Counted from the stretch's first letter, positions 1,808 through 17,986 are shown. The stretch is 24,745 nt of DNA from Methanotrichaceae archaeon (GCA_963754945.1 CAVWIG010000054.1:1-24745), one strand, 5' to 3'. Notes: generated by a model not told the origin, from the letters alone. A program made the numbers and translations.

Positions 1808-2071
1808 TTAAAGAACAACGTTCTCGCCGTTCTCCAGAGCCGCCTTTCTTTCCTGGCGGACATACCACTCCCTTGTGGCCTTATCGCAGTCCTCCATCAT
1901 TCCATAATCAAGCATGGTTTCCATGCTGGCCAGGACAGCCCTCAGGTTCACTCCGATCATTGGGATGCCCGCCACGGATATGATCAGATCCGCGTTAAGC
2001 ACCACACCTTTGTTCAGCAGCCTATCCAGCACCTCCACAAGGCAGCTTTCGCGTTCCGGCTCCAAGATCAT
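1808..2071 (-). CDS. gvpM: Gas vesicle protein GvpM (GvpA/J/M family)
   Basis: LVEVLDRLLNKGVVLNADLIISVAGIPMIGVNLRAVLAS; last gene after gvpK-gvpL; ATGA overlap with gvpL. Confidence 0.8.
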   Translation of the reverse strand: MILEPERESCLVEVLDRLLNKGVVLNADLIISVAGIPMIGVNLRAVLASMETMLDYGMMEDCDKATREWYVRQERKAALENGENVVL

Positions 2072-2847
2072 GCACCCCCGGTGTCCACGAAGCTGAAAGG
2101 AGCCCAGGGGCCAGTAAACCGGACGGCTAGACCATCGAGGCAGTTTATCTTCTCCAAGGCCATGCCTAGCAAGTCAACCTTGTCTCCGTGGACCAGACAG
2201 GAGAAGGAAGCCATCAACTTCTTGTCCTTGTACTTCTCCGGAACGAAAGAGTGCCTCTCTTCGGTCTTGACCTCATCGGCGATGGACTCTATATCCAGGC
2301 CGAACTGCTCAGCCAATTTTTCTACATGCAAAGAAACGGCATCCTTTAGCTTCAGATCCAGGTTCCGCTGTAGCAGGTAGGCCTTCCCCCTGCTTTGCGC
2401 ATCGATCTTTTCCTTTAAAGAAAGAAGATCACAGTTGCCGCTCAGCACTTTGGATGCACACTTATCATAATCATAGAAGATCTGGACGGAGTATTCCGCT
2501 CTGTCCGAGAGCCTGTTCAGCTCCTCTTGAAGCCTTTCGTAGTTCTGGTCCAGCCATCCTCGAATCGCCTCATCGCCTCCCCTGATTATCACATCGAAGG
2601 AGAAGGGGAGGACTGTTCCGAACTTCTTCATGGCATGGTCGATGACGTAACTGTGCTCAAGCACCCAACCTTCCGCCAGGGCATTGTTCGTGGTGTCGTA
2701 GGGCACAGGCGAACAAGAGTGTACAATTGCCGCTATGTCCCGGTGAGAGACGGTGTAGACCAACTTTTCTTCTATCCCTATGCCACCAAGATGGAGTTCT
2801 TCGTGCCCTCTGACTATGCAATAAAGATACCTGGCTTCATCGCTCAT
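2068..2847 (-). CDS. gvpL: Gas vesicle protein GvpL (GvpF/L family)
   Basis: YLYCIV start, VLPFSF core, C-terminal FTGPWAPFSFV; position between gvpK and gvpM. Confidence 0.85.
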   Translation of the reverse strand: MSDEARYLYCIVRGHEELHLGGIGIEEKLVYTVSHRDIAAIVHSCSPVPYDTTNNALAEGWVLEHSYVIDHAMKKFGTVLPFSFDVIIRGGDEAIRGWLDQNYERLQEELNRLSDRAEYSVQIFYDYDKCASKVLSGNCDLLSLKEKIDAQSRGKAYLLQRNLDLKLKDAVSLHVEKLAEQFGLDIESIADEVKTEERHSFVPEKYKDKKLMASFSCLVHGDKVDLLGMALEKINCLDGLAVRFTGPWAPFSFVDTGGA

Positions 2848-2850
2848 AGT

Positions 2851-3165
2851 CTAGCTTTCCTGCTCCTTGGTCCATCTCTCGGGATCAATGAACTGATCGA
2901 CTATGTTTTCAGCTACACTGTCAAGCCCATCCCTTACAGACTTCACAGCGTCTTCGATGCCGTTATCGACTTTAATTTTCTTCAGGGCCTCGTCCAGCTC
3001 GAAGAGAGAATCCCCGAGTCGCTCCATCTCCTCGTCGCTCAGCCTTCCTCCTTCCATTCTCCTGATAGCCTGTCGCTCGAGTACCTCTTCGATGATCTCG
3101 ACCAGGGCAACAACAAGACCAAGTAACCCTTCCGTTAGGTTCTCCTCATCGATGTTAATGGCCAT
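2851..3165 (-). CDS. gvpK: Gas vesicle protein GvpK
   Basis: GLLGLVVALVEII..LERQAIRRMEGGRLSDEEMERLG is the GvpK signature. Confidence 0.93.
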   Translation of the reverse strand: MAINIDEENLTEGLLGLVVALVEIIEEVLERQAIRRMEGGRLSDEEMERLGDSLFELDEALKKIKVDNGIEDAVKSVRDGLDSVAENIVDQFIDPERWTKEQES

Positions 3166-3169
3166 TTCA

Positions 3170-3811
3170 CTACCGTTCTATCTTGAGCTGAAGTATGCCG
3201 TTCTTGTAGGTCCTCTCCATAATGGACTTGGGAGTGCAAGGCAGGGCTACCGTCTTGCTGAACTGGCCGGCGTTTATCTCCAGGGACTCTCCTTTCAGCT
3301 GGACCTTTAGGTCATCCTCGGTGATCCCGGGTAGCTCGGCGATTACAGTGATGTAATCTTTCCCGTCGAGCACATCGACTATGGGCTCCCTCACGGGTCC
3401 CTTTTCAGGCATCCTCACGTTTACCTCTCTCGGAGCGGTCTTTCTCCTTGGTCCGCCGGAAAGAGGCCTTGTGGATATGTGGTAATCTACAACGGGCTTG
3501 CTCGACCAGCCCACATCGATCCTGTGCTTTATCTCGGCATCAGTATCTGCAATCCTATTTCGAAACTCCGGCGAGGACTTCTCCAGAGCCTTGATGATCC
3601 CCCCGAGGCCTGGAACGAACTGGCCAACGATGCCCCCCACCAAACCTTCCACGCAGATGTCTCCTCCGGACTCCTTTTCGACCTGTATTCCTGGCTCGCT
3701 CAGTTTCCCAGGCTCTTTCTTTTCCAGGTCTCCAATCCGCTTCTCGAGCTGTCTTATCCTTTCCTCGTACTGTTCATTGGCCTCATCTTTATCCTTTGGT
3801 GCCTTTTTCAT
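3170..3811 (-). CDS. Hsp20/alpha-crystallin domain protein, GvpH-like
   Basis: REPIVDV..ITVIAELPGI..TYKNGILQLKI alpha-crystallin domain; N-terminal coiled coil; GAGGTGAG ribosome site. Confidence 0.85.
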   Translation of the reverse strand: MKKAPKDKDEANEQYEERIRQLEKRIGDLEKKEPGKLSEPGIQVEKESGGDICVEGLVGGIVGQFVPGLGGIIKALEKSSPEFRNRIADTDAEIKHRIDVGWSSKPVVDYHISTRPLSGGPRRKTAPREVNVRMPEKGPVREPIVDVLDGKDYITVIAELPGITEDDLKVQLKGESLEINAGQFSKTVALPCTPKSIMERTYKNGILQLKIER

Positions 3812-3831
3812 GACTGCTCACCTCATCAAAA

Positions 3832-4200
3832 TCAATCATAGCTATCAGAAGGCGGCCTTATTAGGGGCAAGCTCTGCATCGGACTGGACCAACCACAGAT
3901 GGGGCACCCCTCTTGAATGAGCAGCTTCTCGTCCCTTCGGTGCCCGCATTCCGGGCACGCCGCCTTGGTCACTGATGCCTCCTTCCAGCCTGGTGCGTTG
4001 AGGTTTGTTCCTGAAGGGAGGTCCATCCCATACTTTGCTGCTGTCTCGAAGGAAGCCAGAGTTGCTCGTATCTTAATTCCTAGCAGCTCAGTGCCGGCTA
4101 TCGACACTGCTATATCCGCGTTGATCACCAGGCCTTTGTCCAGTATCCGCTCCACAACATCAGCCAGGTTGCTTGTTTTGTTTGGCGCTAATCCCATCAT
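3832..4200 (-). CDS. gvpJ: Gas vesicle protein GvpJ with C-terminal CxxC..CxxC ribbon
   Basis: LADVVERILDKGLVINADIAVSIAGTELLGIKIRATLASFETAAKYG GvpJ core, then CPECG..CPICG. Confidence 0.9.
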   Translation of the reverse strand: MMGLAPNKTSNLADVVERILDKGLVINADIAVSIAGTELLGIKIRATLASFETAAKYGMDLPSGTNLNAPGWKEASVTKAACPECGHRRDEKLLIQEGCPICGWSSPMQSLPLIRPPSDSYD

Positions 4201-4215
4201 ACTAATCCCATCATA
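4188..4215. repeat. Perfect 14-bp tandem duplication over the gvpJ start
   Basis: CTAATCCCATCATA at 4188-4201 and again at 4202-4215. Confidence 0.95.
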
Positions 4216-4298
4216 GTTTCGCTGGTGGATTTAGAACACTTATTTTGGCTTATATTTCTCCAAGCCTTCAGGAAGCGATTTCTTCTCTGAAGTAAGGC

Positions 4299-4580
4299 TT
4301 ACCTCCGCTTGGCAAGCTCTGCTTTGATCCTTCTTTTATGGGCAGCTATCGCATTTTTGTGTTTGATCTGCTGGCCCCTCTGCTGCCCCTGGACCACCGC
4401 CTTCTGAGCGTTCCATCTCCCTTGGATGCTCAGCTTATTCCGGCGAGAGGTTTCGTACCATTCCCTTTTGGTCTTTCTTAATTGAGGTATAACCTCGTCC
4501 CTGATCCTTCTCTTATGGGCAGTCACAAGCGTGTGCTGTCGCCTCTTATTCTCCATGACCTTGCGCACCATCAATGCCAT
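4299..4580 (-). CDS. Small very basic gas-vesicle-cluster protein (GvpI-like by position and charge)
   Basis: 93 aa, about 28 K/R versus 6 D/E, AHKRRI twice; GAGGAAG upstream; lies directly before gvpJ. Confidence 0.65.
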   Translation of the reverse strand: MALMVRKVMENKRRQHTLVTAHKRRIRDEVIPQLRKTKREWYETSRRNKLSIQGRWNAQKAVVQGQQRGQQIKHKNAIAAHKRRIKAELAKRR

Positions 4581-4624
4581 TTATCTTCCTCGGGTTAGTT
4601 TGACATTATTATTCCATATCATTA

Positions 4625-4864
4625 TTACAATGATCTGCGATGGGCAGATGTATTAGACTCATTGCTATCCATTCCTATCCTGATCACGCACTCGTACACC
4701 GCTCTGGAGAAGAAAGGACCTTCAACATTCCCTTGGATATTCCTCTTTGTTTCTCCCGCCCCATCCATCTCTTGGAGAATCTGCAGAAAACCTGCTATTC
4801 CGCAGATCTGCCCCCCCTCCGGAATCACAGGTCCTCTTGTAGCCGCGGTCTCATCGTCTTTCAT
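4625..4864 (-). CDS. Small gas-vesicle-cluster protein resembling the GvpH N-terminal region
   Basis: Starts 2 bp after the gvpG stop; amphipathic helix then beta-hairpin-like RAVYECVIRIG; no crystallin domain. Confidence 0.55.
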   Translation of the reverse strand: MKDDETAATRGPVIPEGGQICGIAGFLQILQEMDGAGETKRNIQGNVEGPFFSRAVYECVIRIGMDSNESNTSAHRRSL

Positions 4865-4866
4865 AT

Positions 4867-5148
4867 CTATCCAAGTAAGTCTGTTTTCTGGCCCAGGTCC
4901 ATCTCAGAGGCTTTTAGAGCGAGCCGAAGCTTGTACATGAGATCAGAGTTGATCCGCTCATACTCTTTCCGTGTCGTCTCGCCGAACTCGTAAAGCAAAC
5001 GATTCTCCTTTATCTGGCTCTTGATCTTCTCTGGGTTGTACGTTTCTTTGTAAGCAAACTTGTAGATCTGTTCAATGGTCCAGAACATGTCGATTGAGGG
5101 TATTGAGATGCCGAGGGAACGCAAGACGATATCGTCTATTAGGAACAC
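4867..5148 (-). CDS. gvpG: Gas vesicle protein GvpG
   Basis: MFLIDD..YNPEKIKSQIKENRLLYEFGE pattern of archaeal GvpG; GTG start overlaps the gvpF TAG by 1 bp. Confidence 0.85.
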   Translation of the reverse strand: MFLIDDIVLRSLGISIPSIDMFWTIEQIYKFAYKETYNPEKIKSQIKENRLLYEFGETTRKEYERINSDLMYKLRLALKASEMDLGQKTDLLG

Positions 5149-5834
5149 TATCTGAACCCCTTTCGCTGCTTTCCCAGAATGTATATGTCCACGAAGTTAT
5201 AAGCAGGCCAGGGCCCGGAGTACTGCACCTTGACCTCCCCGTACCCGGAAGAGATCTCCCCGACCCGCTCAGAAAACTCAAGGATTTTTGCCCTGTCCAC
5301 CAGAAAGGCCACATTCAATATCAGCCGGTCGCTGAATAGCTTGAGCTCTTTTGAATCAACAGAAATGCCCTGCAGGTTATCCAAGAATTCGGATCTGCAT
5401 TCTGATCTCTTGGCATCCCAGCCTTCTACGCCCTTGGGCAAAAATATCTTGATGCCGAGCTCGACCTTGTTGTCCACAACTTCGAAGGCCTTCTTCATAG
5501 CTGCGTAACCTGCCCCCATAGCAATAGTTAGCAGCTTTCGGTTCTTGAAAATCATCCCGTAGGCCACGGGCAGTACACTGTACTCGGTCATGACACGCTC
5601 TACAACTTTCCTGTGAGTCTCGACCTCACTCTCATTGACAGCGTACTCTCTGAAGACAGCATCGCTAATTACTGGTGTGACGTCCTTGTACTCGAAAGTG
5701 TAAGCCTCCTGGTCTCCAAAGCCCAGATTTCCGAAGCTCTTCTTATCTTCAGGAGCTTTTATTACACAGTAGACATACTTACCAAGGCTTTCTTCTGGTT
5801 TATGTCCTTCAGTTCGCAAGGTCCTTCTAGCCAC
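5148..5834 (-). CDS. gvpF: Gas vesicle protein GvpF
   Basis: YVYCVI, VLPVAYG, LFSDRLILNVAFLV, YSGPWPAYNFVDI; precedes gvpG; GAGGTG ribosome site. Confidence 0.88.
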   Translation of the reverse strand: MARRTLRTEGHKPEESLGKYVYCVIKAPEDKKSFGNLGFGDQEAYTFEYKDVTPVISDAVFREYAVNESEVETHRKVVERVMTEYSVLPVAYGMIFKNRKLLTIAMGAGYAAMKKAFEVVDNKVELGIKIFLPKGVEGWDAKRSECRSEFLDNLQGISVDSKELKLFSDRLILNVAFLVDRAKILEFSERVGEISSGYGEVKVQYSGPWPAYNFVDIYILGKQRKGFR

Positions 5835-5839
5835 AGGAG

Positions 5840-6118
5840 CTACACCTCTTCTTCAACCACTTCCATATCGGCCCTATGGCGAAGTCCAATTCTCCTGTAG
5901 CCTTGGAGCTCCCCACCATCGTCGAACTTCATCTCGTACTTTCCAAGGATGTCCTGGGTATCCGGAACGGCCTTTCTCTCCAAAACCTCGGACTCTACTA
6001 TCCAACCCTCACCGTCTCTAGAGACGCTGACTATGCTATCGACTTTTTTGTTAAAGAGCGTCTCCGCCATAACGCAGGCCTTTTCACTTATCGCTTGGAT
6101 CTTTGGCTTACCTGTCAT
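5840..6118 (-). CDS. gvpO: Gas vesicle protein GvpO
   Basis: GWIVESEVLERKAVPDTQDILGKYE..GELQGYRR GvpO signature. Confidence 0.92.
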   Translation of the reverse strand: MTGKPKIQAISEKACVMAETLFNKKVDSIVSVSRDGEGWIVESEVLERKAVPDTQDILGKYEMKFDDGGELQGYRRIGLRHRADMEVVEEEV

Positions 6119-6129
6119 CTCAAATCCAC

Positions 6130-6501
6130 CTAGGGAGTGTAGATAATATCACCCTTCTCGGATGGAAGGACTTCCACAGCCCTACCTATCCAATCACTAA
6201 CTCCATCTCTTAAATTATATATACTGATATCCTCGGCGAACCTATAATACCGTATAAATTTGGCTAGTCTGTGCCTCCTGGCTTGGCTTGCATCAGAGCC
6301 CATGGACTGCTCATCGAAGGTTCCATCCGGCTTGAGGCACAGATAGAAGGTTTCTGTTATCATCCTTCCATCTTCGGTTCTGGCGGTGATTACTACGGCA
6401 TCCGTCTCGTTGAAACGCAATCCTGGTGGTTTTCTTCTGAAGAGATCGCCAACTATCTTGTGAACGCCCGCTTCCTCAATTACAGCTTTAGTTAGTTCCA
6501 T
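6130..6501 (-). CDS. Hypothetical protein inside the gvp operon
   Basis: 123-aa ORF with 10-11 bp gaps to gvpN and gvpO on the same strand; no family recognised. Confidence 0.75.
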   Translation of the reverse strand: MELTKAVIEEAGVHKIVGDLFRRKPPGLRFNETDAVVITARTEDGRMITETFYLCLKPDGTFDEQSMGSDASQARRHRLAKFIRYYRFAEDISIYNLRDGVSDWIGRAVEVLPSEKGDIIYTP

Positions 6502-6511
6502 AATGATACTC

Positions 6512-7588
6512 TTAGGAAACCTGGGATACGGACTCTATAACCAGCTTAGTCTTTTCAGCCATGTCCTGAGACGAGCATGTCTTGGTTGCTATGACGTCGA
6601 TGCAGAGCTGCTCAAAGCCTATATGTCCGTCGCCGTTGAGGGTTTTCAAGCCATTGGCAATCATTATGCAAGCTCTTGTTCCAGGCTTCTGGCCATCTGG
6701 GAGCTTATCCCTTATCGACCGAACGACGCTTACGATCTTTCTAGATTGCTCAATTGATAATCCAGTGTGCTCCCTTACGATCTGGACTTCAGTGTCGTAG
6801 CAGTAATAATCAGCGTATATTCCTACCATCCTGTCGAGAAGCGCATCCTGTGGTCTATGGATACCGGCGTACTCTATGGAGTTGCTTGTGAGAATGGCCC
6901 TGAAATCTTCGTGAACCTTGACATACCTTTCGTCCCCAAACTTAGTGGGCAGTTCCAGGATTCCTTCCTCGAAGACTGAGAGCAGTATGTTGTTGGAAGC
7001 AGGCTTCGTTCTGGAGAATTCATTATAAATCAGAGTGTAGCCATATTTACATGCTAGAGATAGGGGGTTATCCACCCATTCTATCTTGGTTACGTCTCTG
7101 CTTTTAAATACATTATGAATATAATTATCTCTAACACTCTCGTTCTCCATCTGGGAGTATCCGCCGATCAGATCGCTGGTAGTTATAGCTTCATCGCCGT
7201 TGATCCAAACCACAGGCCTGCCCAGCTCCTTTGCGACGTGAGTTGCGAGGCTCGTCTTCCCACATCCGGTTGGACCAATCAAGTGAACCGGGTAACCTGA
7301 ATTTAGCCAGAGCTTCAGTCTACTTTCTATCTCCATTACCTCAGGAGTTTCTATGAAATGCTTTACATCTGGCATCAGGTAAGCGGTCTCTATAGCCCGT
7401 CTTACTGCTTCGTCTGATGGATTTCCAATCTCTTGCGGATATTTGGGCGACCTCACCCTGACCTGGATATCGGGCTCTTTGGATCTAGTGATCGCTTCAC
7501 GTGCCTGCGAGTTCGCTTTTCTTTCGCTGGCCGTTTGATGGACGGACTCTCCCCTCACCTTCCTTGGATGTGATTCGATATATTGCAT
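6512..7588 (-). CDS. gvpN: Gas vesicle AAA+ ATPase GvpN
   Basis: GYPVHLIGPTGCGKT Walker A, DNYIHNV, LIYNEFSR, QDALLDR. Confidence 0.95.
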   Translation of the reverse strand: MQYIESHPRKVRGESVHQTASERKANSQAREAITRSKEPDIQVRVRSPKYPQEIGNPSDEAVRRAIETAYLMPDVKHFIETPEVMEIESRLKLWLNSGYPVHLIGPTGCGKTSLATHVAKELGRPVVWINGDEAITTSDLIGGYSQMENESVRDNYIHNVFKSRDVTKIEWVDNPLSLACKYGYTLIYNEFSRTKPASNNILLSVFEEGILELPTKFGDERYVKVHEDFRAILTSNSIEYAGIHRPQDALLDRMVGIYADYYCYDTEVQIVREHTGLSIEQSRKIVSVVRSIRDKLPDGQKPGTRACIMIANGLKTLNGDGHIGFEQLCIDVIATKTCSSQDMAEKTKLVIESVSQVS

Positions 7589-7640
7589 TACTGGGCACCT
7601 TCCGTGAAATTTAGATTACTATAAAAATGTCTACTAGGGT

Positions 7641-8537
7641 TTACCCATAGTAGAAATCTCTTACGAAGTTCTTCAAATCCTGCTCCTGATACCTATGGAT
7701 CTCTCCCTGGAAGGTCCTGATCTTCCCCTGAAGTTCTACGGCACCAGAGCCGATTTTCGATACGGCCTTTTGGTTCTCCTTCACCTGTGAGCGAACGCTC
7801 CTTTCGAACTCTGCCAAGCCTTTATGCAGGTTCCTCTCGCCTTCATCCCTGATCTCTTTGCCAGCCTTTTGAACCTCTCGGGACATCTTGAGGGTTGAGG
7901 AATGAAGATCTCTCACTCCAGAGTTGAACTTGGCCACAGAATTCTCGTTGGATTTTTTCTGGGCGTCCAGGCCCTTCTTGAAGTCAGCTTGGCCGGCCTC
8001 AAACTTCTGGATGCCGTCCTCCAGCATCTTCCTGGACCTCTCGTGCAGATCCCTGGATTTTTCTCGCATCTCTCCGGACATTTTATTCGCTTCTGCCTGG
8101 AGGGCAAGAACTCCACTGCTTAACATTGCGGCCGCCTCCTTGTTCTCCTTCACTTGGGAATCGACGACTTTGTTGAACTTGGCAATGCCGTTGGTCATTT
8201 TTCGAATGCCTTCTTCCCTGATCTCTTTGCCAGCCTTCTCTAACTCTCCGGCTGTCTTGTTGGCAGCAGAGATCTTGGCCATGACCCCCGTCTTCCCAAG
8301 GAATTGTGCTTTTGCAGCAGCTTTTGGCTTCTCCACCGTTGGAGGTGCCTCTCTTGGATGTTCCCAAGAGACTGGTTTAGCCTCATCCTTCGGCGTAGCT
8401 TTTCGGCTGGCGTCTAGAATAGACTCAGCCAGTTGGGATTTGGTTCCACCAAGGGCTTCCACCCCAAGCCTCATTGCCATCTCCTCCAGCTCTCGCCTTG
8501 TGTGATTGGTAACCAGTTCTTCGAAGGTTTCTGACAT
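7641..8537 (-). CDS. GvpC-like helical repeat protein with N-terminal HeH/Rho-N-like module
   Basis: Between gvpA and gvpN; three helical repeats (58/65/58 aa); C-terminal DFYYG; GGAGGT ribosome site. Confidence 0.7.
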   Translation of the reverse strand: MSETFEELVTNHTRRELEEMAMRLGVEALGGTKSQLAESILDASRKATPKDEAKPVSWEHPREAPPTVEKPKAAAKAQFLGKTGVMAKISAANKTAGELEKAGKEIREEGIRKMTNGIAKFNKVVDSQVKENKEAAAMLSSGVLALQAEANKMSGEMREKSRDLHERSRKMLEDGIQKFEAGQADFKKGLDAQKKSNENSVAKFNSGVRDLHSSTLKMSREVQKAGKEIRDEGERNLHKGLAEFERSVRSQVKENQKAVSKIGSGAVELQGKIRTFQGEIHRYQEQDLKNFVRDFYYG

Positions 8538-8569
8538 AACCCTCCAAAAAATGAGTTAGAAATGCCTGC

Positions 8570-8800: not shown

Positions 8801-8813
8801 GTTTTATCTCTCC

Positions 8814-9044: not shown

Positions 9045-9057
9045 GTTTTATCTCTCC

Positions 9058-9288: not shown

Positions 9289-9377
9289 TTAACTCACCTT
9301 ATACTTTGACTGTATATTCTTCTGATTATTCAACTGTCTGATCTTTGCAAGAATCGAACCTAATCTCAAAGTCGGAT

Positions 9378-9608: not shown

Positions 9609-9636
9609 TTTCTATTCACCTCCAGATATTTCGTTT

Positions 9637-9654
9637 TTCTTGAGATCTCAAGAA
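9637..9654. promoter_or_regulatory. Perfect 18-bp palindrome upstream of gvpA1 (candidate operator or RNA hairpin)
   Basis: TTCTTGAGATCTCAAGAA is its own reverse complement. Confidence 0.55.
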
Positions 9655-9777
9655 TCGTGAAGTCATTCGATAGCGAGAATTGCACGAGCAATGGCAATAT
9701 CTGTATGAGACCTATATCCCCAATATCTTCAAGGACCGTCATCTCATTGATAGTATAGTTTCCCTCCAATTCTGCCA

Positions 9778-9797
9778 TCTTAAATCTTTTTTTTTTT
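9778..9797 (-). promoter_or_regulatory. Candidate BRE-TATA for the gvp operon
   Basis: Minus strand A11-G-ATTTAAGA about 170 bp upstream of gvpA1; imperfect TATA match. Confidence 0.35.
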
Positions 9798-10214
9798 GAT
9801 ATCGTTTGATCTATTTACTGCCGAATATTACTTAGTTCGTATCTTTCTATGTTGTTACTAAACTTAACCGGAAATATGGGATTTACTTTGATGATAAAGA
9901 AGGACCGTTTAAGGAGGCCACGACCTTGGCCCTTCCATACCATCTGTGTCTGACGTATTGGCTGAGGATGTATTCCAACAATTCAGTACGACATGTTAGT
10001 AGTTCATATTCGTACTAAATCTCCTTATACTATGAAGCTTAAAATAGCTTTTCATCTCTCAAAATTAATCAATAATATTGTTCTAAAATTGTTTTGAAAT
10101 TTGTCTTGAAGTTCGAGAAATAACAATGTATATTTATGTGATTAGGCAGTTTAATATTGTATTAATCGATTCGCGGCCGGAACCTTTCGCCGCTTAATGA
10201 AGAACGAGGAGCAT

Positions 10215-10565
10215 ATGAAAATTCTTGTTGTGGATGACGCTCCATACATGATCAAAGTGCTAAAGGATATACTGGTGGCATGCGGTCACGAGGTCCACGA
10301 AGCTGTCACCGGGGAAGAAGCTTTGGTCAGATATTCGGATGTTAAGCCAGAGGTGGTTCTAATGGACATACTCATGCCATCCATGGATGGTATCAGCGCT
10401 ACCAGGAAAATTCTCGAGAAGGACCCTTTGGCAAAAATAGTAGTGATTACCGCGGTGGGAAAGACTGGTCTTGAAAAGGAGTGTTTGGAGGCCGGTGCCA
10501 GGAAGTTCATATCTAAACCATTCAAGATCAAAGAACTCGTCAACGTGATCAACTCGGTAGGGTAG
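10215..10565 (+). CDS. Single-domain response regulator (CheY-like receiver)
   Basis: ILVVDD, LMDILMPSMDG, VITA, SKPF; GAGGAG ribosome site favours ATG 10215 over 10197. Confidence 0.93.
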   Translation: MKILVVDDAPYMIKVLKDILVACGHEVHEAVTGEEALVRYSDVKPEVVLMDILMPSMDGISATRKILEKDPLAKIVVITAVGKTGLEKECLEAGARKFISKPFKIKELVNVINSVG

Positions 10566-11693
10566 ATGAAAGGATTTGAGTACGTAAAGGGATATCAGGA
10601 AGACATCATAGAGACCATTCCGAGTACGATTATAGTGGTAAACGAGAGCCTTAAGATTCTGTACGCCAACAGAAACTACTACCTGAAATCAGGCATGAAG
10701 GAGCGTGACGTAATCGGTGAGAAGCTCTCCAGAGTTTTTCCGCAGATCCTTATCGGGAGGACCCAGATTGAAGAGAAAATCAGGGATGTTTTTCTTACCG
10801 GCAAACCCTCTGATGGCGATCAGCTTCGATATCCTGGTGGAATATTCTATTTTTACAAAATATATCCGTTGAAGGAGGCGGAAGGCAGCATAAGCAAGGT
10901 GGTAATATTCTTGGAGGACATCACCGAGCTAACCAGGCTGGAGGAAGAGCTGAAGGATTCGTATGTCAAGCTCGAGAACGCTTTTGCAGAGCTGAAAGAG
11001 AACGACGAGATGAAGTCGGAGTTTATCCTGACCGCCTCGCATGAGCTCAGAACTCCTCTCACAGTCATAAATGGCTATATTGAGATGTTCGAGGAGGGAA
11101 TGCTAGGCGAGCTTGACGAGACTCAGAGCGAGAAGATCCACGTCATGCATTCCCAGACAGACCACATGATAAGGTTGGTTGAGGATATGCTTGATACCTC
11201 AAGGCTCGAATCGAAGAAGTTCAAGATTCAGAGAACTCCCATGAGAATCGAGGAGATCGCGAGGAGCGCTCTAGAGGAACTAAGCAGGCTTGCAGGACTC
11301 AAGGAGCATACATTATCCCTTAAGATCGAGGGCGAGCTTAGCTACATCGAGGGGGATGGAAGGAGGATAAAGCAGGTCTTCAACAATCTTTTGACCAATG
11401 CCATCAAGTACACTCCGGATAAGGGTTGTATAGAAGTAGCAATAAAAAATGAGCCGGGCCAGGTGCGAGTATCGATCTCTGACAATGGCATAGGGATAGC
11501 GAAGAAAGACCAGGTGAAGATCTTCGAAAAGTTTTACACCGGCAGTGGACACTCACTGACAAGGGAGTCTGGTAGGTTGGGTCTGGGTCTGGCCATAGCC
11601 AAGGGCATTGTTGAGGCTCATGACGGCAAACTATGGGTTGAGAGCGAGCCGGGAATCGGAAGCACCTTCTTCTTCACCCTTCCGAAAATATGA
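10566..11693 (+). CDS. PAS-domain sensor histidine kinase
   Basis: N-terminal PAS (ILYANR), H-box SHELRTPL, N-box NLLTNAIKY, DNGIGI, GLGLAIAK; no obvious membrane helix. Confidence 0.95.
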   Translation: MKGFEYVKGYQEDIIETIPSTIIVVNESLKILYANRNYYLKSGMKERDVIGEKLSRVFPQILIGRTQIEEKIRDVFLTGKPSDGDQLRYPGGIFYFYKIYPLKEAEGSISKVVIFLEDITELTRLEEELKDSYVKLENAFAELKENDEMKSEFILTASHELRTPLTVINGYIEMFEEGMLGELDETQSEKIHVMHSQTDHMIRLVEDMLDTSRLESKKFKIQRTPMRIEEIARSALEELSRLAGLKEHTLSLKIEGELSYIEGDGRRIKQVFNNLLTNAIKYTPDKGCIEVAIKNEPGQVRVSISDNGIGIAKKDQVKIFEKFYTGSGHSLTRESGRLGLGLAIAKGIVEAHDGKLWVESEPGIGSTFFFTLPKI

Positions 11694-12340
11694 TTGAGAA
11701 GCTTCTGAGTTTTATCCAGAAAAAGCCCCAGGTCGTACCGACAACAGAGCCTATAAGCCGTGTAATAAATTGCGATATCGTCAGAGGCTCGAACTATCTT
11801 GTGAAGGAGTCGAAGGTAGAGTTATGTATGAAGATTTTCGCATCCCTTGTAAAAGGCAAGTGCCAGGAATGTGATCAGCTAGAGGCTTTTCCGTGCGAGA
11901 GCGTAGGATGTGAAAGGTGCACCCTTCTATGCACGTGTAAAAATTGTAACAGAACAAGAGCCCAGGGCTTATGTTTCTCCATGCGCTCCCCGGAGGAGAC
12001 AAGGATGATGTACACCCTCCAGACGACTCCAGTATTCTGGATAAGCAACCATGGGACTGACAGAGTAAGCCCAAGAGACTTGGAATTAATTGCCGACATG
12101 ATCAGTTCATTTTTGAAGAAAAGTAAAAATCCTGTTGTTCTACTGGACGGGGTAGAATACCTAATAGCGATAAATGGTTTTATTCCCGTTTTTAAGATGC
12201 TTAGGGACGTACAGGAGTGGACGATCCTGAACCGTGCCGTTTTTCTCTTGTCCATAAACCCGGTCTCTCTCGAAGAGAAGGAAATGGCACTCATTGAGAG
12301 AAACATGAAAGACTTGAGCGTCCAAGAGAAAATTCCCTGA
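11690..12340 (+). CDS. DUF835-domain protein with Cys-rich insertion
   Basis: PVFWIS, VSPRDL, VVLLDGVEYLIAINGF, LEEKEMALIE typical of DUF835; ATGA overlap with the kinase. Confidence 0.85.
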   Translation: MIEKLLSFIQKKPQVVPTTEPISRVINCDIVRGSNYLVKESKVELCMKIFASLVKGKCQECDQLEAFPCESVGCERCTLLCTCKNCNRTRAQGLCFSMRSPEETRMMYTLQTTPVFWISNHGTDRVSPRDLELIADMISSFLKKSKNPVVLLDGVEYLIAINGFIPVFKMLRDVQEWTILNRAVFLLSINPVSLEEKEMALIERNMKDLSVQEKIP

Positions 12341-12690
12341 TTGGCAGACGGATCGACCCTGAAATAAGGACTATTTGATATCTTACCGTTTCCTTAAGGG
12401 GAACCTTGTTCGAGCGCAGAGAGTGGCAAAATCTCGGGTTTGAGTGGGCAAAATACTGGAATTTGCACAGCATCTGTTAAAACCCGGCAACCTCCAAGAC
12501 GCGGATTCTCATGTTCGCTTCTCGGGGAAAAGTTATTATCAGGTTCGTTCATCCTACGTTTGGGCGAGCTGTTGCAGGATAGCCCTTAAGGCGAATCTCA
12601 GTCGCTTGTATAACAAGCAAAAAAGCGAATTATATGAATGAGGCATGCTCGTGGCCGATGCGGTTACTACTCATATCACGCCTGCAGGAT

Positions 12691-12898
12691 TTGGAGAAAT
12701 CCCCTACAGGAATAGGTAGCCTGGATGAGATCACAGACGGGGGGGGCTCCTAAGGACGCCCCACTCTGATATCAGGCAGCACAGGCTCAGGCAAGACTCT
12801 GATGTCATGCAGTTCCTCGCGCAGGGCGCTCTCAGACACGATGAGCCCGGAGTCTTCGTGGCGCTCGAGAAGAGCGCCAGAGCATTGTGGCTAGCTTG
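12691..12898 (+). pseudogene. Truncated, disrupted KaiC-family ATPase N-terminal fragment
   Basis: LEKSPTGIGSLDEITDGG, TAA at 12751, GRPTLISGSTGSGKT, frameshift, MQFLAQGALRHDEPGVFVALE, then VASL in another frame. Confidence 0.85.
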
Positions 12899-12985
12899 CA
12901 GATTTTTCCGCTGCAGAGGAGTAGCCATACCACAGAATACTAATCGTGACATAGTAGTAAGCGAAAGTAGCATAGCGATTGGAAG

Positions 12986-15900
12986 ATGGAATCCAACATG
13001 AGGCAAACAGGGATCGATGTTATCGGCGATGTCCCCTGGGGGACTCATTTCTGCCAGTTCTATGAGACGAGTCAAGACCTGATCGAGATACTTGTGCCGT
13101 ATTTCAAGGAAGGCCTGGCCGCAAACGAGTTCTGCATGTGGGTGACTTCAGAGCCTCTTCAAGTCGATCAGGCGACTGCTGCCTTGCGGTCTGCAGTCCC
13201 GGACTTGGACGATTACATTGAAAAAGGGCAGATTGAGTTTCTCGACTATAGAACATGGTACACCCGATCTGGCAAGTTCTCGGCCGACGAGGCGCTTCAG
13301 GACTGGGTTGACAAACTGAAAGCAGCCCAAGAACGAGGATATGAAGGCTTACGACTGACAGGGAATACGTTTTGGCTGGAGAAGACAGACCGGGATGACT
13401 TCACTAGGTACGAGGAGACGGTCAACAATGTCATCGGCCGGTACCCAATGCTTGCCATCTGTACGTACTCCCTTCAAAAATGTAATGCAGTAGAGATACT
13501 CGATGTCGTCGCCGACCATCAGTTCGCTCTGATCAAACGTTCGGGACGATGGGAGACAATCGAGACCATCCAGCATAAAAAGATTGGACTGGCACTGCGA
13601 GAAATTGAGGAGCGTTATTCAACCACCCTGGCGAGCATCGGCGACGCGGTCATTGCTACCGATATAGCTGGCGATATCACCTTCATGAACGAAGTGGCAG
13701 AAGAATTGACCGGCTGGTCTCTCCATGACGCTTTGCAGAAACCGGCGAAGGAAGTTTTCAACATCATCAATGAACACACCCACCAGAAGGTTGATGACCC
13801 CGTCACCAAGGTGCTCGATAAAGGAACTGTTGTAGGTCTTGCCAACCATACCCTCTTAGTTCGAAGGGATAGAACTGAAGTCGCAATTGATGATAGCGGA
13901 GCGCCGATTAAAGACCGTAACGGCAACACCTTGGGAGTTGTGCTCGTATTTCGGGATATCAGTGACCGCAAGCAGGCTATGAAAGAGATCGAAAGTCTTG
14001 CCAAATTCCCGGAAGAAAACCCGAATCCGATAATGAGAATAGCAACAGATGGTGCCATCATCTACGCAAATCCGTCCAGCGCTCCGCTGCTTAAAGCATG
14101 GGAGTGCCAGGTGGGCGAAATGCTGCCGGACGATTACAGAAATCTCATCCTGGATGCCTACAGTTCTGGAAATCGAATTGAAACCGAGGCCACATCTGGC
14201 GGTACCATCTATTCGCTAATTATCGCCCCAATCGTGGATATGAGCTATGTTAATGTTTATGGCAGAGACGTCACCCAGCACAGGTTGGCAGACAAGGCAC
14301 TGAAGGATAGCGAGCAGAGATTCCGGGACGCCATAGATCATTTTCCAAACGTGTTAGCCATCTACGATGCGGATAGAAGAGTTGAATACGTCAACTCCAA
14401 CGGTCTTCAGATCATGGGACTCTCGGAGCAAAAGGTCATTGGAAAGAAGGATGAGGAGATCTTCCCACCCGAGACGATCAACTCATACCTTCCGGCCCTG
14501 AAGCGCGCTGTAGAAACAAAGATGCCCCAGGCCCTAGAGCGCACCAGGCCTGTCAGCATGGGCGGCCAGACGATCATCGCTAACATAATTCCTCGGCTCA
14601 ACGAGGACGGGGAGATCCGTCAAATCCTGTGTTTAAGCTATGACATCAGCGAGCGAAAGCGGGCCGAGGAGGAACTGCGCTTAGCCCACGACGATCTTGA
14701 GATGAAGGTGTTGGAGAGGACCGAGGAGCTCGCTTACGCCAAAGAAGAGCTCGAAACGACGAATGAAGAACTCCAGATAGAGCTCGAAGAGCAAAAGAGG
14801 ATAGAGGAAGAACTTCTTAAAGCGAAGGAAAAGGCTGAAGATGCCTCCAGGGCCAAATCGGATTTCATGGCCACCATGAGCCACGAGATCAGGACACCCA
14901 TGAACGCTGTCATTGGCCTGACAGGTCTGCTCCTAGACGATGGAGAGTTATCCGCCGAGCAGAGAGACTTCATCGAGACCATCAGGACCAGCGGAGATGC
15001 CCTTATGACCATAATCAACGATATCCTCGATATCTCCAAGCTGGAAGCAGAAAAGGTGATGCTGGAGGAGCAGCCCTTCAACTTGAAAAGCTGCATCGAA
15101 GAAGCTCTGGATTTAGTGGCAATTAGGGCGGCCGAAAAGGGCCTGAACCTGACTTACACTGTGGAGAAGAATGTACCAGCTAACATCATCAGTGATCCTT
15201 CCAGGCTGCGCCAAATCCTAGGTAACCTGCTTGGCAACGCTGTAAAATTTACCAATGCAGGCGACGTTAAACTCAACGTTACGAGCCATCAACTCGATGG
15301 GCATCACGAGATCCACTTCGCAGTTGAAGATACCGGCATCGGCATTCCAATGGATAAAATGGACCATCTGTTCAGGCCCTTCAGTCAGGTCGATGCTTCG
15401 GTAACTCGAAGATACGGTGGTACTGGCCTAGGCCTGGCCATAAGCAAGAAGCTTGTAGAGCTGATGGGTGGCAAGATATGGGCCGAAAGTGAGATTGGCA
15501 AGGGCTCGACATTCCATTTCACGATTGAGACACCTGTGACCTCCGATGAACCAAAGCCACTCTTAAGTGCAGTTCAACCTCAGATGGTCGGCAAGCGAAT
15601 ACTCATTGTTGATGACAGCAGGACTAATCGTCGGGTCTTGGGCATCCAGGCCTACACCTGGGGAATGCTGCCCGTGACAGTTTCGTCGAGTCAGGAAGCC
15701 CTAAAATGGATTAATAGAGGGGATGACTTCGATGTCGTCATCCTGAACATGAACATGCCGGTAATGGACGGATTGACTCTGGCCCGAGAGATCCGAAAAA
15801 CCAACGATATCCTGCCAATCGTGATGTTGACACGAGTCGGAGAACATGTGCCATCCGACCTCGTTGAGAGATCCTTGAACAAACCCATCAAACCGTCTCA

Positions 15901-16384
15901 ACTTCACGATGTCCTGATGGGGGTATTTGGCAAGAATCTCATCCAAGAGATTGCTTTGCCCGTCGCTAAAAATGAGATGCAGACTCCGCGTATCTTGCTT
16001 GCCGAGGACAATGTGTCCAGCCAAAAGGTAACTTTGGCAATGCTAAAGCGACTGGGATACTGCGCTGATGCGGTAGCAAATGGACTGGAGGCCCTCCAGG
16101 CTTTGGGGCGTCAGCACTATGATATCGTGCTCATGGATGTCCGTATGCCCGAGATGGACGGTCTCGAAGCCACTCAGATTATTCGCAAGCGTTGGCCAAA
16201 GAATGGACTAAAGGTAGTAGCCATCACGGCTTATGCTCTCGAGGGAGATCGGGAGAAGTGCCTTGATGCCGGTATGGACGATTACATCAGCAAGCCCGTG
16301 AAGCTGGATGAGTTGGCAGGGGTGCTGAGCAGATTCGCCAATCAGAAAATAGCTACTGAAGGTGTTGAAGAAGGATCGCAATAG
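12986..16384 (+). CDS. Hybrid sensor kinase: MEDS-PAS-PAS-PAS-coiled coil-HisKA-HATPase-REC-REC
   Basis: GDVPWGTHFCQFY (MEDS), SIGDAVIATD, FPEENPNP and EYVNS (PAS), SHEIRTPMN, GGTGLGLAIS, two receiver domains. Confidence 0.95.
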   Translation: MESNMRQTGIDVIGDVPWGTHFCQFYETSQDLIEILVPYFKEGLAANEFCMWVTSEPLQVDQATAALRSAVPDLDDYIEKGQIEFLDYRTWYTRSGKFSADEALQDWVDKLKAAQERGYEGLRLTGNTFWLEKTDRDDFTRYEETVNNVIGRYPMLAICTYSLQKCNAVEILDVVADHQFALIKRSGRWETIETIQHKKIGLALREIEERYSTTLASIGDAVIATDIAGDITFMNEVAEELTGWSLHDALQKPAKEVFNIINEHTHQKVDDPVTKVLDKGTVVGLANHTLLVRRDRTEVAIDDSGAPIKDRNGNTLGVVLVFRDISDRKQAMKEIESLAKFPEENPNPIMRIATDGAIIYANPSSAPLLKAWECQVGEMLPDDYRNLILDAYSSGNRIETEATSGGTIYSLIIAPIVDMSYVNVYGRDVTQHRLADKALKDSEQRFRDAIDHFPNVLAIYDADRRVEYVNSNGLQIMGLSEQKVIGKKDEEIFPPETINSYLPALKRAVETKMPQALERTRPVSMGGQTIIANIIPRLNEDGEIRQILCLSYDISERKRAEEELRLAHDDLEMKVLERTEELAYAKEELETTNEELQIELEEQKRIEEELLKAKEKAEDASRAKSDFMATMSHEIRTPMNAVIGLTGLLLDDGELSAEQRDFIETIRTSGDALMTIINDILDISKLEAEKVMLEEQPFNLKSCIEEALDLVAIRAAEKGLNLTYTVEKNVPANIISDPSRLRQILGNLLGNAVKFTNAGDVKLNVTSHQLDGHHEIHFAVEDTGIGIPMDKMDHLFRPFSQVDASVTRRYGGTGLGLAISKKLVELMGGKIWAESEIGKGSTFHFTIETPVTSDEPKPLLSAVQPQMVGKRILIVDDSRTNRRVLGIQAYTWGMLPVTVSSSQEALKWINRGDDFDVVILNMNMPVMDGLTLAREIRKTNDILPIVMLTRVGEHVPSDLVERSLNKPIKPSQLHDVLMGVFGKNLIQEIALPVAKNEMQTPRILLAEDNVSSQKVTLAMLKRLGYCADAVANGLEALQALGRQHYDIVLMDVRMPEMDGLEATQIIRKRWPKNGLKVVAITAYALEGDREKCLDAGMDDYISKPVKLDELAGVLSRFANQKIATEGVEEGSQ

Positions 16385-16472
16385 AACTAATAAGGGCCAG
16401 CACCTCAGCCGTCCGGATTGATGGTCCCTCTGGCCATTCGGACCTGCATTCGGAACAGCATCCTTTTAGAGT

Positions 16473-17366
16473 TCAACCTCCAAGGTGGTTGACGGCTTCG
16501 TGGGATCTTGCCTGGGTTAGTATCAGCAACCGATCCCGCGAATTGACGTTCCGTACCTTAGAGAATATTCGATATCTTTTGTCCACAGGTGTGAAGAGGT
16601 TGTAGTGGGAGAGTAGAAGCTCTGACTTGCCTAGAAATAGATAGCCTTTATCGTTTAGGGCGAAATGAAAGTTAGCAACTATTTTCTTTTGGGACACTGA
16701 GTTGAAGTACATCAATGTATTGCGGCAGATGAGAAGGTCTAGCTTTGAGATTGGTGGGTCCTTGAGCAGATCATGTCTTCCGAATAGGATCGAACGGCGT
16801 AGATCCCTGCGAAATTCGAAGTTGTCCTTGGAAGGCTCAAAATATTTTTGCCGTAGAGGCGATGAGATCTCTTGAAGGTCGGCGGTTTTATAGGTCCCCT
16901 GGCGTGCCTGGGCAAGTGCCACCTCATCTATATCTGTGGCATAGATCTTAACGCTACTTCTAAACAAGTCATCTCCCAGGGCCTCCGCTAGCACCATGGC
17001 AATGGTGTAGCTTTCTTCGCCAGATGCGCAGCCAGGATTCCAGACCTTGATGGGATGGTTTTCCTCCTTTTCAGCGATTATTTTGTGGAGTATCGCTTTG
17101 GCAAGGTAATCCCAGGCTTCTGGATCTCGGAAAAAGGATGTCACATTGATTAGGATAGTATTGAAAAGCTCGGAAAACTCTTCAGGATGGACCTGAAGGT
17201 AATCCTTGTACCTGCCGAAATCCTCTATCCCAAGCATTTTCATGCGTTTACTTACCCTACGAAAAATAGTAGGGCGCTTGTACCCTGTGATCTGAAATCC
17301 ATGGTGCTGCTGAAGATATTCCAGCAGCGCCTCGAACATCTCATCCTTGACATTCAAACTATTCAA
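16473..17366 (-). CDS. cheR: CheR-type protein-glutamate O-methyltransferase
   Basis: INVTSFFRD, GCASGEESY, IYATDID, CRNTLMYF. Confidence 0.93.
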   Translation of the reverse strand: MNSLNVKDEMFEALLEYLQQHHGFQITGYKRPTIFRRVSKRMKMLGIEDFGRYKDYLQVHPEEFSELFNTILINVTSFFRDPEAWDYLAKAILHKIIAEKEENHPIKVWNPGCASGEESYTIAMVLAEALGDDLFRSSVKIYATDIDEVALAQARQGTYKTADLQEISSPLRQKYFEPSKDNFEFRRDLRRSILFGRHDLLKDPPISKLDLLICRNTLMYFNSVSQKKIVANFHFALNDKGYLFLGKSELLLSHYNLFTPVDKRYRIFSKVRNVNSRDRLLILTQARSHEAVNHLGG

Positions 17367-17986
17367 GCTATGTGTCCTCCATTGACCAAGGATACGAGAG
17401 CGGAAGGGACCTCGTCAATGGACAAGATGAAATCCGCATTCTCAGTCTTGATGACTGAGCCGGGCATGCCAAAAAACTCCGAAGTTGTCTCATCCGGGAC
17501 TATTACAGTGCCATTCATATTCATAATAGCCTGCACACACATGGTGCCATCCCTGCCCGTGCCGGTTAGCACGACGGCAATGGCACGATCCTTATAGCTT
17601 GCTGCCACATATTCGAACAGCAAGTCTGCAGAAGGCCGCACAAAATTAACAAGCTCCGACGAAGAAAGTGATATCGTGCCATCTGGGTTAACCAGGAGAT
17701 GCCGGTCTGGTTTGGCGGTGTACACAGTCGATGGGCTCAAGATGTCTCCTTCCTCTGCCTGCTTTACGCTCATGAGGGTATAACTGTTCAGGATGTCAGC
17801 CATTAAGCTGTCGTGTCTGGGATCCGTGTGCTGTACGATCACGATCGCCGCCGGAAAGTCGGCGGAAAGGTGGGATAAGACTTTTTTTATGGCTGCTAGC
17901 CCGCCTGCAGATGCTGCTATTGCCACTACGTCGAAAGCGGTGTCATCAAAATGCACAGGAGAAGGCTTATGGTCCGTCATGTTCAT
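17363..17986 (-). CDS. cheB: Stand-alone CheB methylesterase domain (no receiver)
   Basis: Ser-His-Asp triad motifs ASAGG, VQH, LTGTGRDG; RPSAD; 4-bp overlap with cheR. Confidence 0.92.
   Translation of the reverse strand: MNMTDHKPSPVHFDDTAFDVVAIAASAGGLAAIKKVLSHLSADFPAAIVIVQHTDPRHDSLMADILNSYTLMSVKQAEEGDILSPSTVYTAKPDRHLLVNPDGTISLSSSELVNFVRPSADLLFEYVAASYKDRAIAVVLTGTGRDGTMCVQAIMNMNGTVIVPDETTSEFFGMPGSVIKTENADFILSIDEVPSALVSLVNGGHIA

Follow-up and report, generated by a model that had tools for sequence, protein, structure and literature searches.

The window, by which we mean the whole stretch of DNA analysed here (24,745 nucleotides), is the entire contig C54 of a Methanotrichaceae archaeon (GCA_963754945.1 CAVWIG010000054.1:1-24745), whose genome assembly is 2.97 Mb long and 88% complete. 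It carries a gas-vesicle (gvp) cluster of 17 co-directional open reading frames (ORFs) on the minus strand (1808-9608), spaced at -4 to 98 bp. Across an intergenic region of exactly 588 bp (9609-10196), the first gvpA gene faces three coupled plus-strand genes (10197-12340), hereafter the trio, encoding a receiver (REC), a PAS-containing histidine kinase, and a DUF835 protein. The ORFs and family matches agree with the layout given by an earlier sequence-only reading of the window, namely the 17-gene cluster, the 588-bp divergent gap, the coupled trio, a kaiC relic, a MEDS hybrid kinase, and cheB-cheR. Our subject is the possible control of the gvp genes by the trio and its partners. In order from the promoter, the gvp genes and then the trio are as follows (aa, amino acids).

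9378-9608, 9058-9288, 8814-9044, and 8570-8800, minus strand: four tandem gvpA genes, 76 aa each, the operon's first genes (the scanned copy exceeds the NF046092 and PRK09371 cut-offs)
7641..8537, minus strand: GvpC-like repetitive coiled protein, 298 aa, kept after gvpA in relatives (ORF and comparison with relatives)
6512..7588, minus strand: gvpN, AAA ATPase (TIGR02640 above cut-off)
6130-6501, minus strand: conserved 123-aa hypothetical protein
5840-6118, minus strand: gvpO
5148-5834, minus strand: gvpF
4867-5148, minus strand: gvpG
4625-4864, minus strand: conserved 79-aa hypothetical protein
4299-4580, minus strand: basic 93-aa protein, occupying the gvpI position
3832-4200, minus strand: gvpJ
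3170-3811, minus strand: Hsp20/GvpH-like protein
2851-3165, minus strand: gvpK
2068-2847, minus strand: gvpL
1808-2071, minus strand: gvpM
10197..10565, plus strand: stand-alone receiver (REC) with D13, D14, D57, T85, and K107 intact (residues read from the sequence)
10566..11693, plus strand: cytoplasmic PAS-HisKA-HATPase histidine kinase with His159 (domain matches)
11690..12340, plus strand: DUF835 protein of RecA/KaiC-type fold, no Walker A motif (family match and structure model)

In a first sample of 40 relatives, REC faces gvpA in 10 of the 12 gvpN-bearing genomes, and the contig ends in the other two. These 12 were selected before the layout was known, and the arrangement is more than chance because it recurs in 10 of them. 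The relatives extend the operon: DUF835 is followed by a PadR protein of 121-134 aa and then by a single-domain KaiC-like protein of 220-244 aa, which makes a five-gene unit. In the window's genome, the padR-kaiC pair is located on another contig (C28:210808-211900). It is bordered on the left by two genes for transposases and by the customary TPR gene; the genes to its right, which we take to encode a glycosylase, a TauE-like protein, and an FprA-like protein, also trail the intact operon of one relative (G016). Because the C28 pair carries the same right-hand genes as that intact operon, we place the break in the operon between DUF835 and padR. A closed genome, G079, likewise has the padR-kaiC pair separated from the trio, by 420 kb, and the pair is also split off in G065, G112, and G115. 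The earlier suggestion that the output might run through a factor encoded elsewhere is thus borne out by the PadR regulator on C28, an operon member in relatives.

The distribution of these genes was assessed in 105 family genomes, with orthologues accepted at E < 1e-60 (DUF835) and < 1e-105 (kinase). gvpN is present in 48 genomes, the DUF835 orthologue in 40, the kinase in 38, the KaiC-like protein in 38, and PadR in 48; within the gvpN set the last four counts are 39, 37, 37, and 44, respectively. Outside the gvpN set, DUF835 and the kinase occur in G012 only, where gvpA faces REC at the contig end, the KaiC-like protein in G073 only, and PadR in G041, G050, G055, and G073, of which G055 has gvpA and a cut gvpN. 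Every kinase orthologue (38/105) and DUF835 orthologue (40/105) is therefore in a gvp-bearing genome; the divergent trio is recurrent and was found in no genome without gvp genes, as expected from the sequence-only claim that it is a partner of the cluster. Among the 48 gvpN-bearing genomes, DUF835 is absent from 9, the kinase from 11, the KaiC-like protein from 11, and PadR from 4, several of these genomes being drafts with contigs that end at the gvpA repeats. The KaiC-like gene adjoins padR in 38 of 38 genomes and DUF835 adjoins padR in 31 of 40, while DUF835 lies at most 7 kb from gvpN in 26 of 39 and on a separate contig in the other 13. padR alone faces gvpA in four genomes (G045, G055, G057, and G118). 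Presence is patchy within genus g2 (59 genomes, gvpN in 28 and DUF835 in 26). A PadR homologue search returned near relatives only, among the best 120 of 168 matches. The PadR protein of G050 (L059:6140-7192) is a fusion of a TIR domain to this PadR type.

The divergent region contains the following predicted elements (BRE, transcription factor B recognition element).

10054..10108, minus strand: arrayed 8-nt boxes preceding the gvpA promoter, a candidate GvpE-type activator site (promoter alignment and coordinates)
10101-10108, minus strand: box CAAGACAA
10089-10096, minus strand: box CAAAACAA
10078-10085, minus strand: box TAGAACAA, followed by one degenerate box position
10054-10061, minus strand: box TGAGAGAT
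10047-10053, minus strand: predicted BRE of the gvpA promoter, GAAAAGC (conserved block; function from the archaeal promoter consensus)
10039-10046, minus strand: predicted TATA box of the gvpA promoter, TATTTTAA (conserved block; function from the archaeal promoter consensus)
10122..10136, plus strand: predicted BRE/TATA of the divergent trio promoter, on the far side of the box array and less conserved than the gvpA side
9609..10015, minus strand: predicted long gvpA 5' leader of ~400 nt with conserved blocks and hairpins (z -3.1 for 9880-10015)

The promoter set comprised the intergenic regions of 33 genomes, 13 of which were chosen because DUF835 and gvpN share a contig. The consensus of ten genera, leaving out the host's genus g1, is TGAAACAA-n4-TGAAACAA-n4-TGAAATTA-n4-TGAAAGAT-GAAAGGG-TATTTAAA. 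The promoter profile has autocorrelation maxima at lags 12 and 24, and four TGAAACAA-type boxes abut the BRE/TATA. Measured against the family consensus TGAAACAA with its 12-bp period, the boxes of the window are imperfect and one is degenerate. With genus g1 excluded from training, the window's site (10100 down to 10039) nevertheless ranks first in its genome (41.1 bits vs 14.0 for the next best), a rank that reports conservation and not function because the site is orthologous; with the same exclusion, the boxes alone give two overlapping registers of 23.5 and 21.1 bits vs 15.9 for the next site. A strict promoter pattern matches in 12 of the 105 family genomes, all with gvp genes, and its reversed control in none. 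It tests specificity, not sensitivity, because it missed the window's genome and 35 other gvpN-bearing genomes. The arrangement resembles the published GvpE site of haloarchaea, TGAAACGG-n4-TGAACCAA, which is located beside the BRE between divergent promoters (PMC2241852, PMC4390858; what we take from these two papers and from PMC9501494, PMC5847659, and PMC10470525 refers to the available parts of each). The methanogen consensus likewise has two 8-nt boxes 4 nt apart beside the BRE, and a cross-test of haloarchaeal upstream regions was significant in two of five. Specifically, a two-box model scored above shuffles in this window, in two of five GvpE-bearing and none of three GvpE-less haloarchaea, in G416 (family f3), in one of eight loci of families f14, f17, and f28, in two of three genomes of genus g6, and in G015; in the Halogeometricum upstream region it chose TGAAACGG-TTGG-TGAAATCA, not above shuffles (p 0.18). 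Promoter-like sites with a like box array also lie away from gvpA, at G012:C351:2059-2113 and near position 9411 of C27 in the window's genome, and are possible further targets.

We then compared the C28 pair with the haloarchaeal regulators. GvpE activates the promoters PA and PD in vivo and binds TBP/TFB. The plasmid-encoded GvpE proteins of Halobacterium and Halogeometricum are PF03551 PadR proteins, and PF03551 is above cut-off for the C28 PadR as well as for these two. The C28 PadR and GvpE align pairwise at 30% over 70 aa, with a profile-profile probability of 95%, and the C28 PadR is GvpE's best tblastn match in the window's genome. In four of five methanogen genomes the sole match of a five-row GvpE profile is the gvp-linked PadR; in the fifth it is a generic PadR. 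The C28 PadR is not a full-length GvpE (129 vs 191 aa): it lacks the N-terminal region of ~65 aa, and the similarity covers GvpE residues 67-136 by BLAST and 69-151 by profile alignment. The position divergent from gvpA is shared, as padR adjoins DUF835 in 31 of the 40 DUF835-bearing relatives and stands alone there in four, while here it is on C28. The C28 KaiC-like protein matches PF06745 (KaiC) only and has neither of the GvpD families PF07088 and PF20440; it may work like GvpD without being GvpD. No GvpE or GvpD model was among those of the NCBIfam scan.

None of the window's scanned ORFs matches GvpD or the PadR/GvpE family, so the sequence-only statement that the cluster lacks gvpD and gvpE is literally true of the window, but it misleads in that a GvpE-family PadR and a KaiC-family partner lie on C28. 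A full-length GvpD homologue is also encoded in this genome, on C29 (456 aa; locus L001:667-2441). It has a two-part architecture, scores 77 bits for PF07088, which is above the cut-off, stays below the cut-off for PF20440, and aligns at 29% over 314 aa with an additional C-terminal match. Formally it is the canonical gvpD elsewhere in the genome that the sequence-only reading had named as evidence against itself. It is, however, present irrespective of gvp and thus cannot account for the cluster: this highly conserved protein (62-98%) is found in 99 of the 105 genomes vs 48 for gvpN, is unlinked to gvp, and adjoins a gene for a 129-aa non-PadR helix-turn-helix protein. This distribution excludes it as the cluster's repressor. 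The C29 GvpD-family ATPase is probably the housekeeping stock that gave rise to haloarchaeal GvpD.

The complex of the PadR dimer with the KaiC-like protein of the window's genome was predicted with a score of 0.77 vs 0.34 for the best of three controls. The pass mark is reached by 116 of 157 solved complexes and by 2 of 215 mismatched pairs, counts that apply only roughly to this PadR–KaiC-like job. At least 94% of contacts agree between runs, and the partner's predicted local distance difference test (pLDDT) value is at least 78. The predicted interface involves PadR residues 51-53, 68-78, and 97 and KaiC-like residues 82-112, including the invariant D86 and R88. The contacted PadR helix, SQGxVYPxLY, is the DNA-reading helix of PadR proteins. 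Recall of a solved pair is not evident because the PDB match lists of the two families have no common entry. The model supports a KaiC-like protein that would mask the DNA-binding surface of PadR. The two genes are neighbours (38/38), and an interaction of the GvpD–GvpE kind is predicted by the model (0.77 vs 0.34).

The kinase and receiver of the trio carry the residues of a two-component pair (His159 in HisKA; Asp, Thr, and Lys in REC), and phosphotransfer between them is predicted. The DUF835 model matches FlaH, Elp456, RecA, and KaiC (best E 3e-5, template modelling score about 0.45-0.48), and its alignment has no P-loop motif. Its RecA/KaiC-type fold upholds the claim that DUF835 is a KaiC-like domain and agrees with the listing of DUF835 and MEDS as inactivated KaiC-like domains (PMC5847659). 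A profile comparison of DUF835 with the KaiC-like family gave no significant similarity. An insert in DUF835 contains eight invariant cysteines (C58, 61, 69, 74, 77, 81, 83, and 86) plus C95 and is modelled with low confidence. Judged from these residues, the protein is a candidate metal or iron-sulfur (Fe-S) sensor, and the PAS domain together with the cysteine cluster would suit redox or metal sensing.

The gvp loci of other families of the phylum connect these domains. A phylum sample of 401 genomes contained 40 with gvpN, and 12 loci were taken from families f3, f14, f16, f17, and f28. A PadR homologue is in or beside the gvp cluster in six of the 12, the remaining six contigs being 1.6-10 kb long. 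G323 and G254 (family f14) have a REC-X-PadR fusion beside a REC-PAS kinase in the gvp cluster, G226 has an X-PadR protein, and G323 additionally has a MEDS-like-PadR protein. The X domain of the fusions has a fold matching FlaH, Elp456, and KaiC. It is mainly because of the REC-X-PadR fusions that we assign the receiver, a dead KaiC domain, and PadR to a common pathway. In G323, G366, G254, and G226 (L083, L086, L087, and L093; families f14 and f28), the PadR fusion and gvpA are separated by a gene for a Cdc48-type AAA ATPase, and further ORFs at this place in G323 presumably encode an ArsA-like ATPase and an RpoN-like protein.

Published expression data exist for Methanothrix thermoacetophila, in which Mthe_0064-0068 carry the annotations REC, PAS kinase, DUF835, PadR, and KaiC/GvpD/RAD55 ATPase and are flanked by two gvp blocks (PMC10470525). 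In Table S4 of that paper, the five genes are up 2.0-2.8x with gvpA 2.6x for acetate vs direct interspecies electron transfer (DIET; a sheet of 82 rows), 2.0-4.1x with gvpA 4.1x for DIET vs DIET-magnetite, and 2.9-33.8x with gvpA 5.0x for acetate vs acetate-magnetite. Thus the expected co-expression of trio and gvp holds in three of four published contrasts and fails in the fourth, where REC (2.8x) and DUF835 (1.6x) change opposite to gvpA and the other three genes are unlisted. The co-expression fits a shared, auto-regulated divergent promoter.

Taken together, we propose, with a probability of roughly 0.68, that the gvp genes are under an activator and an anti-activator of the GvpE/GvpD-like kind, supplemented by a two-component input. 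In the proposed circuit, the PadR protein would bind the 12-bp-period boxes beside the gvpA promoter and activate as GvpE does, the KaiC-like protein would bind the DNA-reading helix of PadR and keep PadR off DNA, and the kinase, receiver, and DUF835 protein would set the balance between the two. DNA binding and gvpA activation by PadR are probable, repression by the KaiC-like protein has slightly better than even odds, and the route from kinase through REC-phosphate and DUF835/KaiC to PadR falls a little short of them. A bolder version is less likely than not: GvpE-type activation through a 12-bp-period site would predate haloarchaea and drive the gas-vesicle genes in methanogens, and a kinase would act through a receiver and an Fe-S/zinc-binding dead KaiC domain on a KaiC-like mimic of the DNA site that binds the PadR activator. 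The sequence-only proposal that a trio-based island replaces GvpD/E gives way here to an apparently extended GvpE/GvpD-type circuit, with PadR and its KaiC-family partner in the relatives' operon.

The likeliest rival accepts control of the gvpA promoter by PadR and the KaiC-like protein and takes the trio as merely co-regulated by the divergent promoter, signalling elsewhere, e.g. to filament attachment or vesicle assembly. Consistent with it, four genomes have only padR opposite gvpA and two have a deleted kinase; where the operon is split (this genome, G079, G065, G112, and G115), PadR and the KaiC-like protein stay paired and leave the trio; REC has no output domain; and the trio's RNA response exceeds that of padR/kaiC and is once opposite to that of gvpA. 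The f14 fusions, which unite receiver, KaiC-fold domain, and PadR in one chain beside a PAS kinase, and the failure to find the trio in any gvp-less genome speak against it, and we consider it unlikely. The sign could also be reversed relative to GvpE/GvpD, with PadR as a repressor that the KaiC-like protein relieves by covering the DNA-reading helix. Repressors are common in the PadR family, the proximal box abuts the predicted BRE, and the predicted complex suits an anti-repressor equally. The boxes, however, lie upstream of the BRE and not over the TATA box or start, with the place, spacing, and near-identical sequence of the GvpE activator site, and padR RNA rises with gvpA in three contrasts, which leaves a repressor improbable.

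The sequence-only reading had grouped the trio with the kaiC relic, the MEDS kinase, and CheB/CheR as a sensory island that replaces GvpD/E and touches Gvp proteins directly. Their adjacency in the window and the listing of DUF835 and MEDS as inactivated KaiC-like domains (PMC5847659) favour such an island. It is very improbable nonetheless: the right-hand genes are not kept at the locus, the kaiC piece is a truncated pseudogene, the stretch from 15426 is duplicated on C31, and a DNA-binding partner, PadR, exists. Least credible of all is that the five genes hitchhike, without any control of gvp, with a gas-vesicle island gained and lost as a block. Block loss by itself yields co-occurrence among non-independent kin, and PadR is kept in three genomes where no gas-vesicle genes were found; yet padR-kaiC still tracks gvp presence when far from the cluster (G079, 420 kb; this genome), and the conserved boxes, the fusions in other families, and the co-expression would be left to explain.

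Several observations weigh against the proposed activator–anti-activator circuit, in addition to the limit on the promoter rank given above. On the DNA side, the promoter anchors were placed by hand (32 of 33 intergenic regions aligned on the conserved block, G416 omitted), and the two-box model was above shuffles in 8 of 22 upstream regions, uncorrected for multiple tests. The gene distribution has exceptions: G015 (99% complete) keeps boxes and trio yet gave no PadR or KaiC-like match, and G073, G041, and G050 have PadR matches yet no gas-vesicle gene was found in them. All co-occurrence counts span kin genomes, which are not independent, and DUF835-domain and KaiC-like homologues (40-46%) adjoin in gvpN-less genomes of family f3. 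Most of the kinase gene is gone from G007 and G116, and four genomes have none of the trio at the locus, which makes the two-component part dispensable; as only padR stands opposite gvpA in four genomes and two have lost the kinase, PadR is the constant part of the unit. On the protein side, the KaiC-like family has an altered Walker A motif, GAEGTLKS, while the lysine, the Walker B aspartate, and a KMR motif are invariant. The C28 KaiC-like protein compares with Halobacterium GvpD at a pairwise E of 0.12, has no bR2 domain, and is not a GvpD orthologue. In the reverse test, the methanogen PadR profile has GvpE as best match in only two of five haloarchaeal genomes and gives certain generic PadRs scores equal to that of GvpE. 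In two trees of PadR proteins (66 and 42 rows, LG+G4; near-duplicates, weak non-PadR matches, and most of the haloarchaeal PadR expansion omitted), generic PadRs separate GvpE from the methanogen PadRs; a joint clade was not recovered, but the approximately unbiased test does not reject it (p 0.40). A profile comparison of DUF835 with the fused X domain gave no significant similarity. The opposite behaviour of REC and DUF835 in the fourth contrast also counts here, and the co-expression is compatible with mere promoter sharing, too.

Compared with the haloarchaeal GvpE/GvpD system and its upstream activating sequence between PA and PD (p-vac, c-vac, and mc-vac; PMC2241852, PMC4390858, PMC9501494), the methanogen module shares the divergent placement of a regulator operon relative to gvpA, the pairing of a PadR-family with a KaiC-superfamily protein, direct contact of the regulators (here predicted), and 8-nt boxes with 4-nt spacers beside the BRE (TGAAACAA vs TGAAACGG and TGAACCAA). 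It differs in a PadR of 121-134 aa without the N-terminal extension, in a single-domain KaiC-like partner of 230 aa that is not a GvpD orthologue, in up to four boxes and ~68 nt between predicted BREs (two boxes and 35 nt in haloarchaea), in the additional receiver, PAS kinase, and cysteine-rich DUF835 protein, and in having gvpF-M after gvpA in place of gvpDE. GvpD leads to GvpE breakdown in haloarchaea, whereas the mechanism predicted here is masking of the DNA-reading helix. The module may work like the haloarchaeal system: by family, position, and site PadR is a candidate GvpE member, while the KaiC-like protein falls outside GvpD. In Serratia sp. ATCC 39006, GvrA/GvrB/GvrC are also dedicated regulators in the gas-vesicle locus and are required for gvpA transcription; GvrA is, however, a sigma-54, NtrC-like bacterial activator, and PadR, KaiC-like, and DUF835 proteins are not described there (PMC4982088). 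With the archaeal REC-DUF835, MEDS-REC, and iKaiC-REC systems and FilI/FilR1/FilR2 of Methanosaeta harundinacea, as summarised in PMC5847659, the module shares a stand-alone REC, a cytoplasmic PAS kinase, DUF835, and output by protein contact. What sets the module apart from those systems is that one can point to its candidate target promoter, to a protein for DNA-binding output, and to flotation as a visible phenotype.

A 2022 review describes GvpD/GvpE as haloarchaea-specific and methanogen gvp clusters as being without gvpDE (available text of PMC9501494). Among the expression changes of Methanothrix on going over to direct electron uptake, those of the gas-vesicle genes are the clearest, and the available part of that study names no regulator (PMC10470525). 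In the literature covered, which excludes subscription papers, we found no report of a methanogen GvpE homologue, a PadR-gvp link, or the five-gene module. A candidate regulator, site, and antagonist make buoyancy control in methanogens, which bears on sludge washout and partner contact, testable. The module is also a concrete setting in which to study the path by which stand-alone receivers of archaea reach DNA and the role of KaiC-like and dead KaiC-like proteins. The bolder version above, if true, would link two-component phosphorylation by way of KaiC-fold proteins to a named promoter, as a path complete within archaea.

The right-hand neighbours of the trio are listed next.

12643..13000 (approx.), plus strand: 5' remnant, truncated and frameshifted, of another kaiC gene, where padR-kaiC stand in relatives
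12986..16384, plus strand: MEDS-PAS-HisKA-HATPase-REC-REC hybrid kinase
16473..17986, minus strand: cheR and cheB, inside a stretch duplicated at the end of C31

Synteny rules out the kaiC relic, the MEDS kinase, and cheB-cheR as module members, and with it their assignment to a sensory island: PadR follows DUF835 instead in 31 of 40 genomes, and in 33 other genomes with cheB matches, none of these matches shares a contig with a gvp cluster at a distance of 0.5 Mb or less. The MEDS part of the hybrid kinase has an 87% identical paralogue on C15. Window positions 15426-24745 correspond to C31:58504-67788, a contig end, over 9.3 kb at 97.5% identity, housekeeping genes included. The biotin carboxylase gene is split in the window (20809-22292) and whole on C31, while cheR is whole in the window and frameshifted on C31. 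The duplicate likely reflects a co-binned strain or indel errors, and because the two copies differ in gene integrity, frameshifts in this assembly need caution. A PRS2-type AAA ATPase and a TrpY-family regulator (18648-20398), unrelated to the gvp module, follow the cheR-cheB region.

The gvpA leader keeps several blocks across genera (GTACG...CGTAC, TCAGAC, and GGCCTCCTC), with a hairpin just before the ribosome site. No Rfam match was found in 9280-10230, and a structured cis-RNA is not established because RNAalifold on 18 leaders gave a weak consensus fold with only four pairs and no real covariation. RNA runs, which represent relatives only, at small shares and as contigs, yielded contigs that span 9598-9999; 10044-10180 is left uncovered in three of four runs, a gap that we did not count as evidence. 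In four RNA runs from four studies, a relative has an 87-nt padR piece joined to the ribosome site of the REC gene (window 10199; L037:10965-11051), and contigs with a whole padR occur alongside in the same runs. The piece is possibly a fossil of a padR at the operon head.

Within the gvp cluster, the 298-aa coiled protein has a weak pairwise likeness to haloarchaeal GvpC (20% over 165 aa, E 4e-4). Methanogen gvp clusters are described as being without gvpC (PMC9501494, available text); the protein nevertheless occupies the gvpC position here. The basic 93-aa protein (4299-4580) showed no detectable similarity to haloarchaeal GvpI. The order of the unannotated proteins at 6130-6501, 4625-4864, 4299-4580, and 7641-8537 inside the cluster is kept across the family. 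Aside from these, a protein of 194-218 aa without a Pfam or NCBIfam match flanks gvp clusters in Methanotrichaceae and families f14 and f28. It adjoins gvpM or gvpH in many relatives, has moved to C43:2183-2773 in this genome, and is a candidate for an unrecognised gas-vesicle gene.

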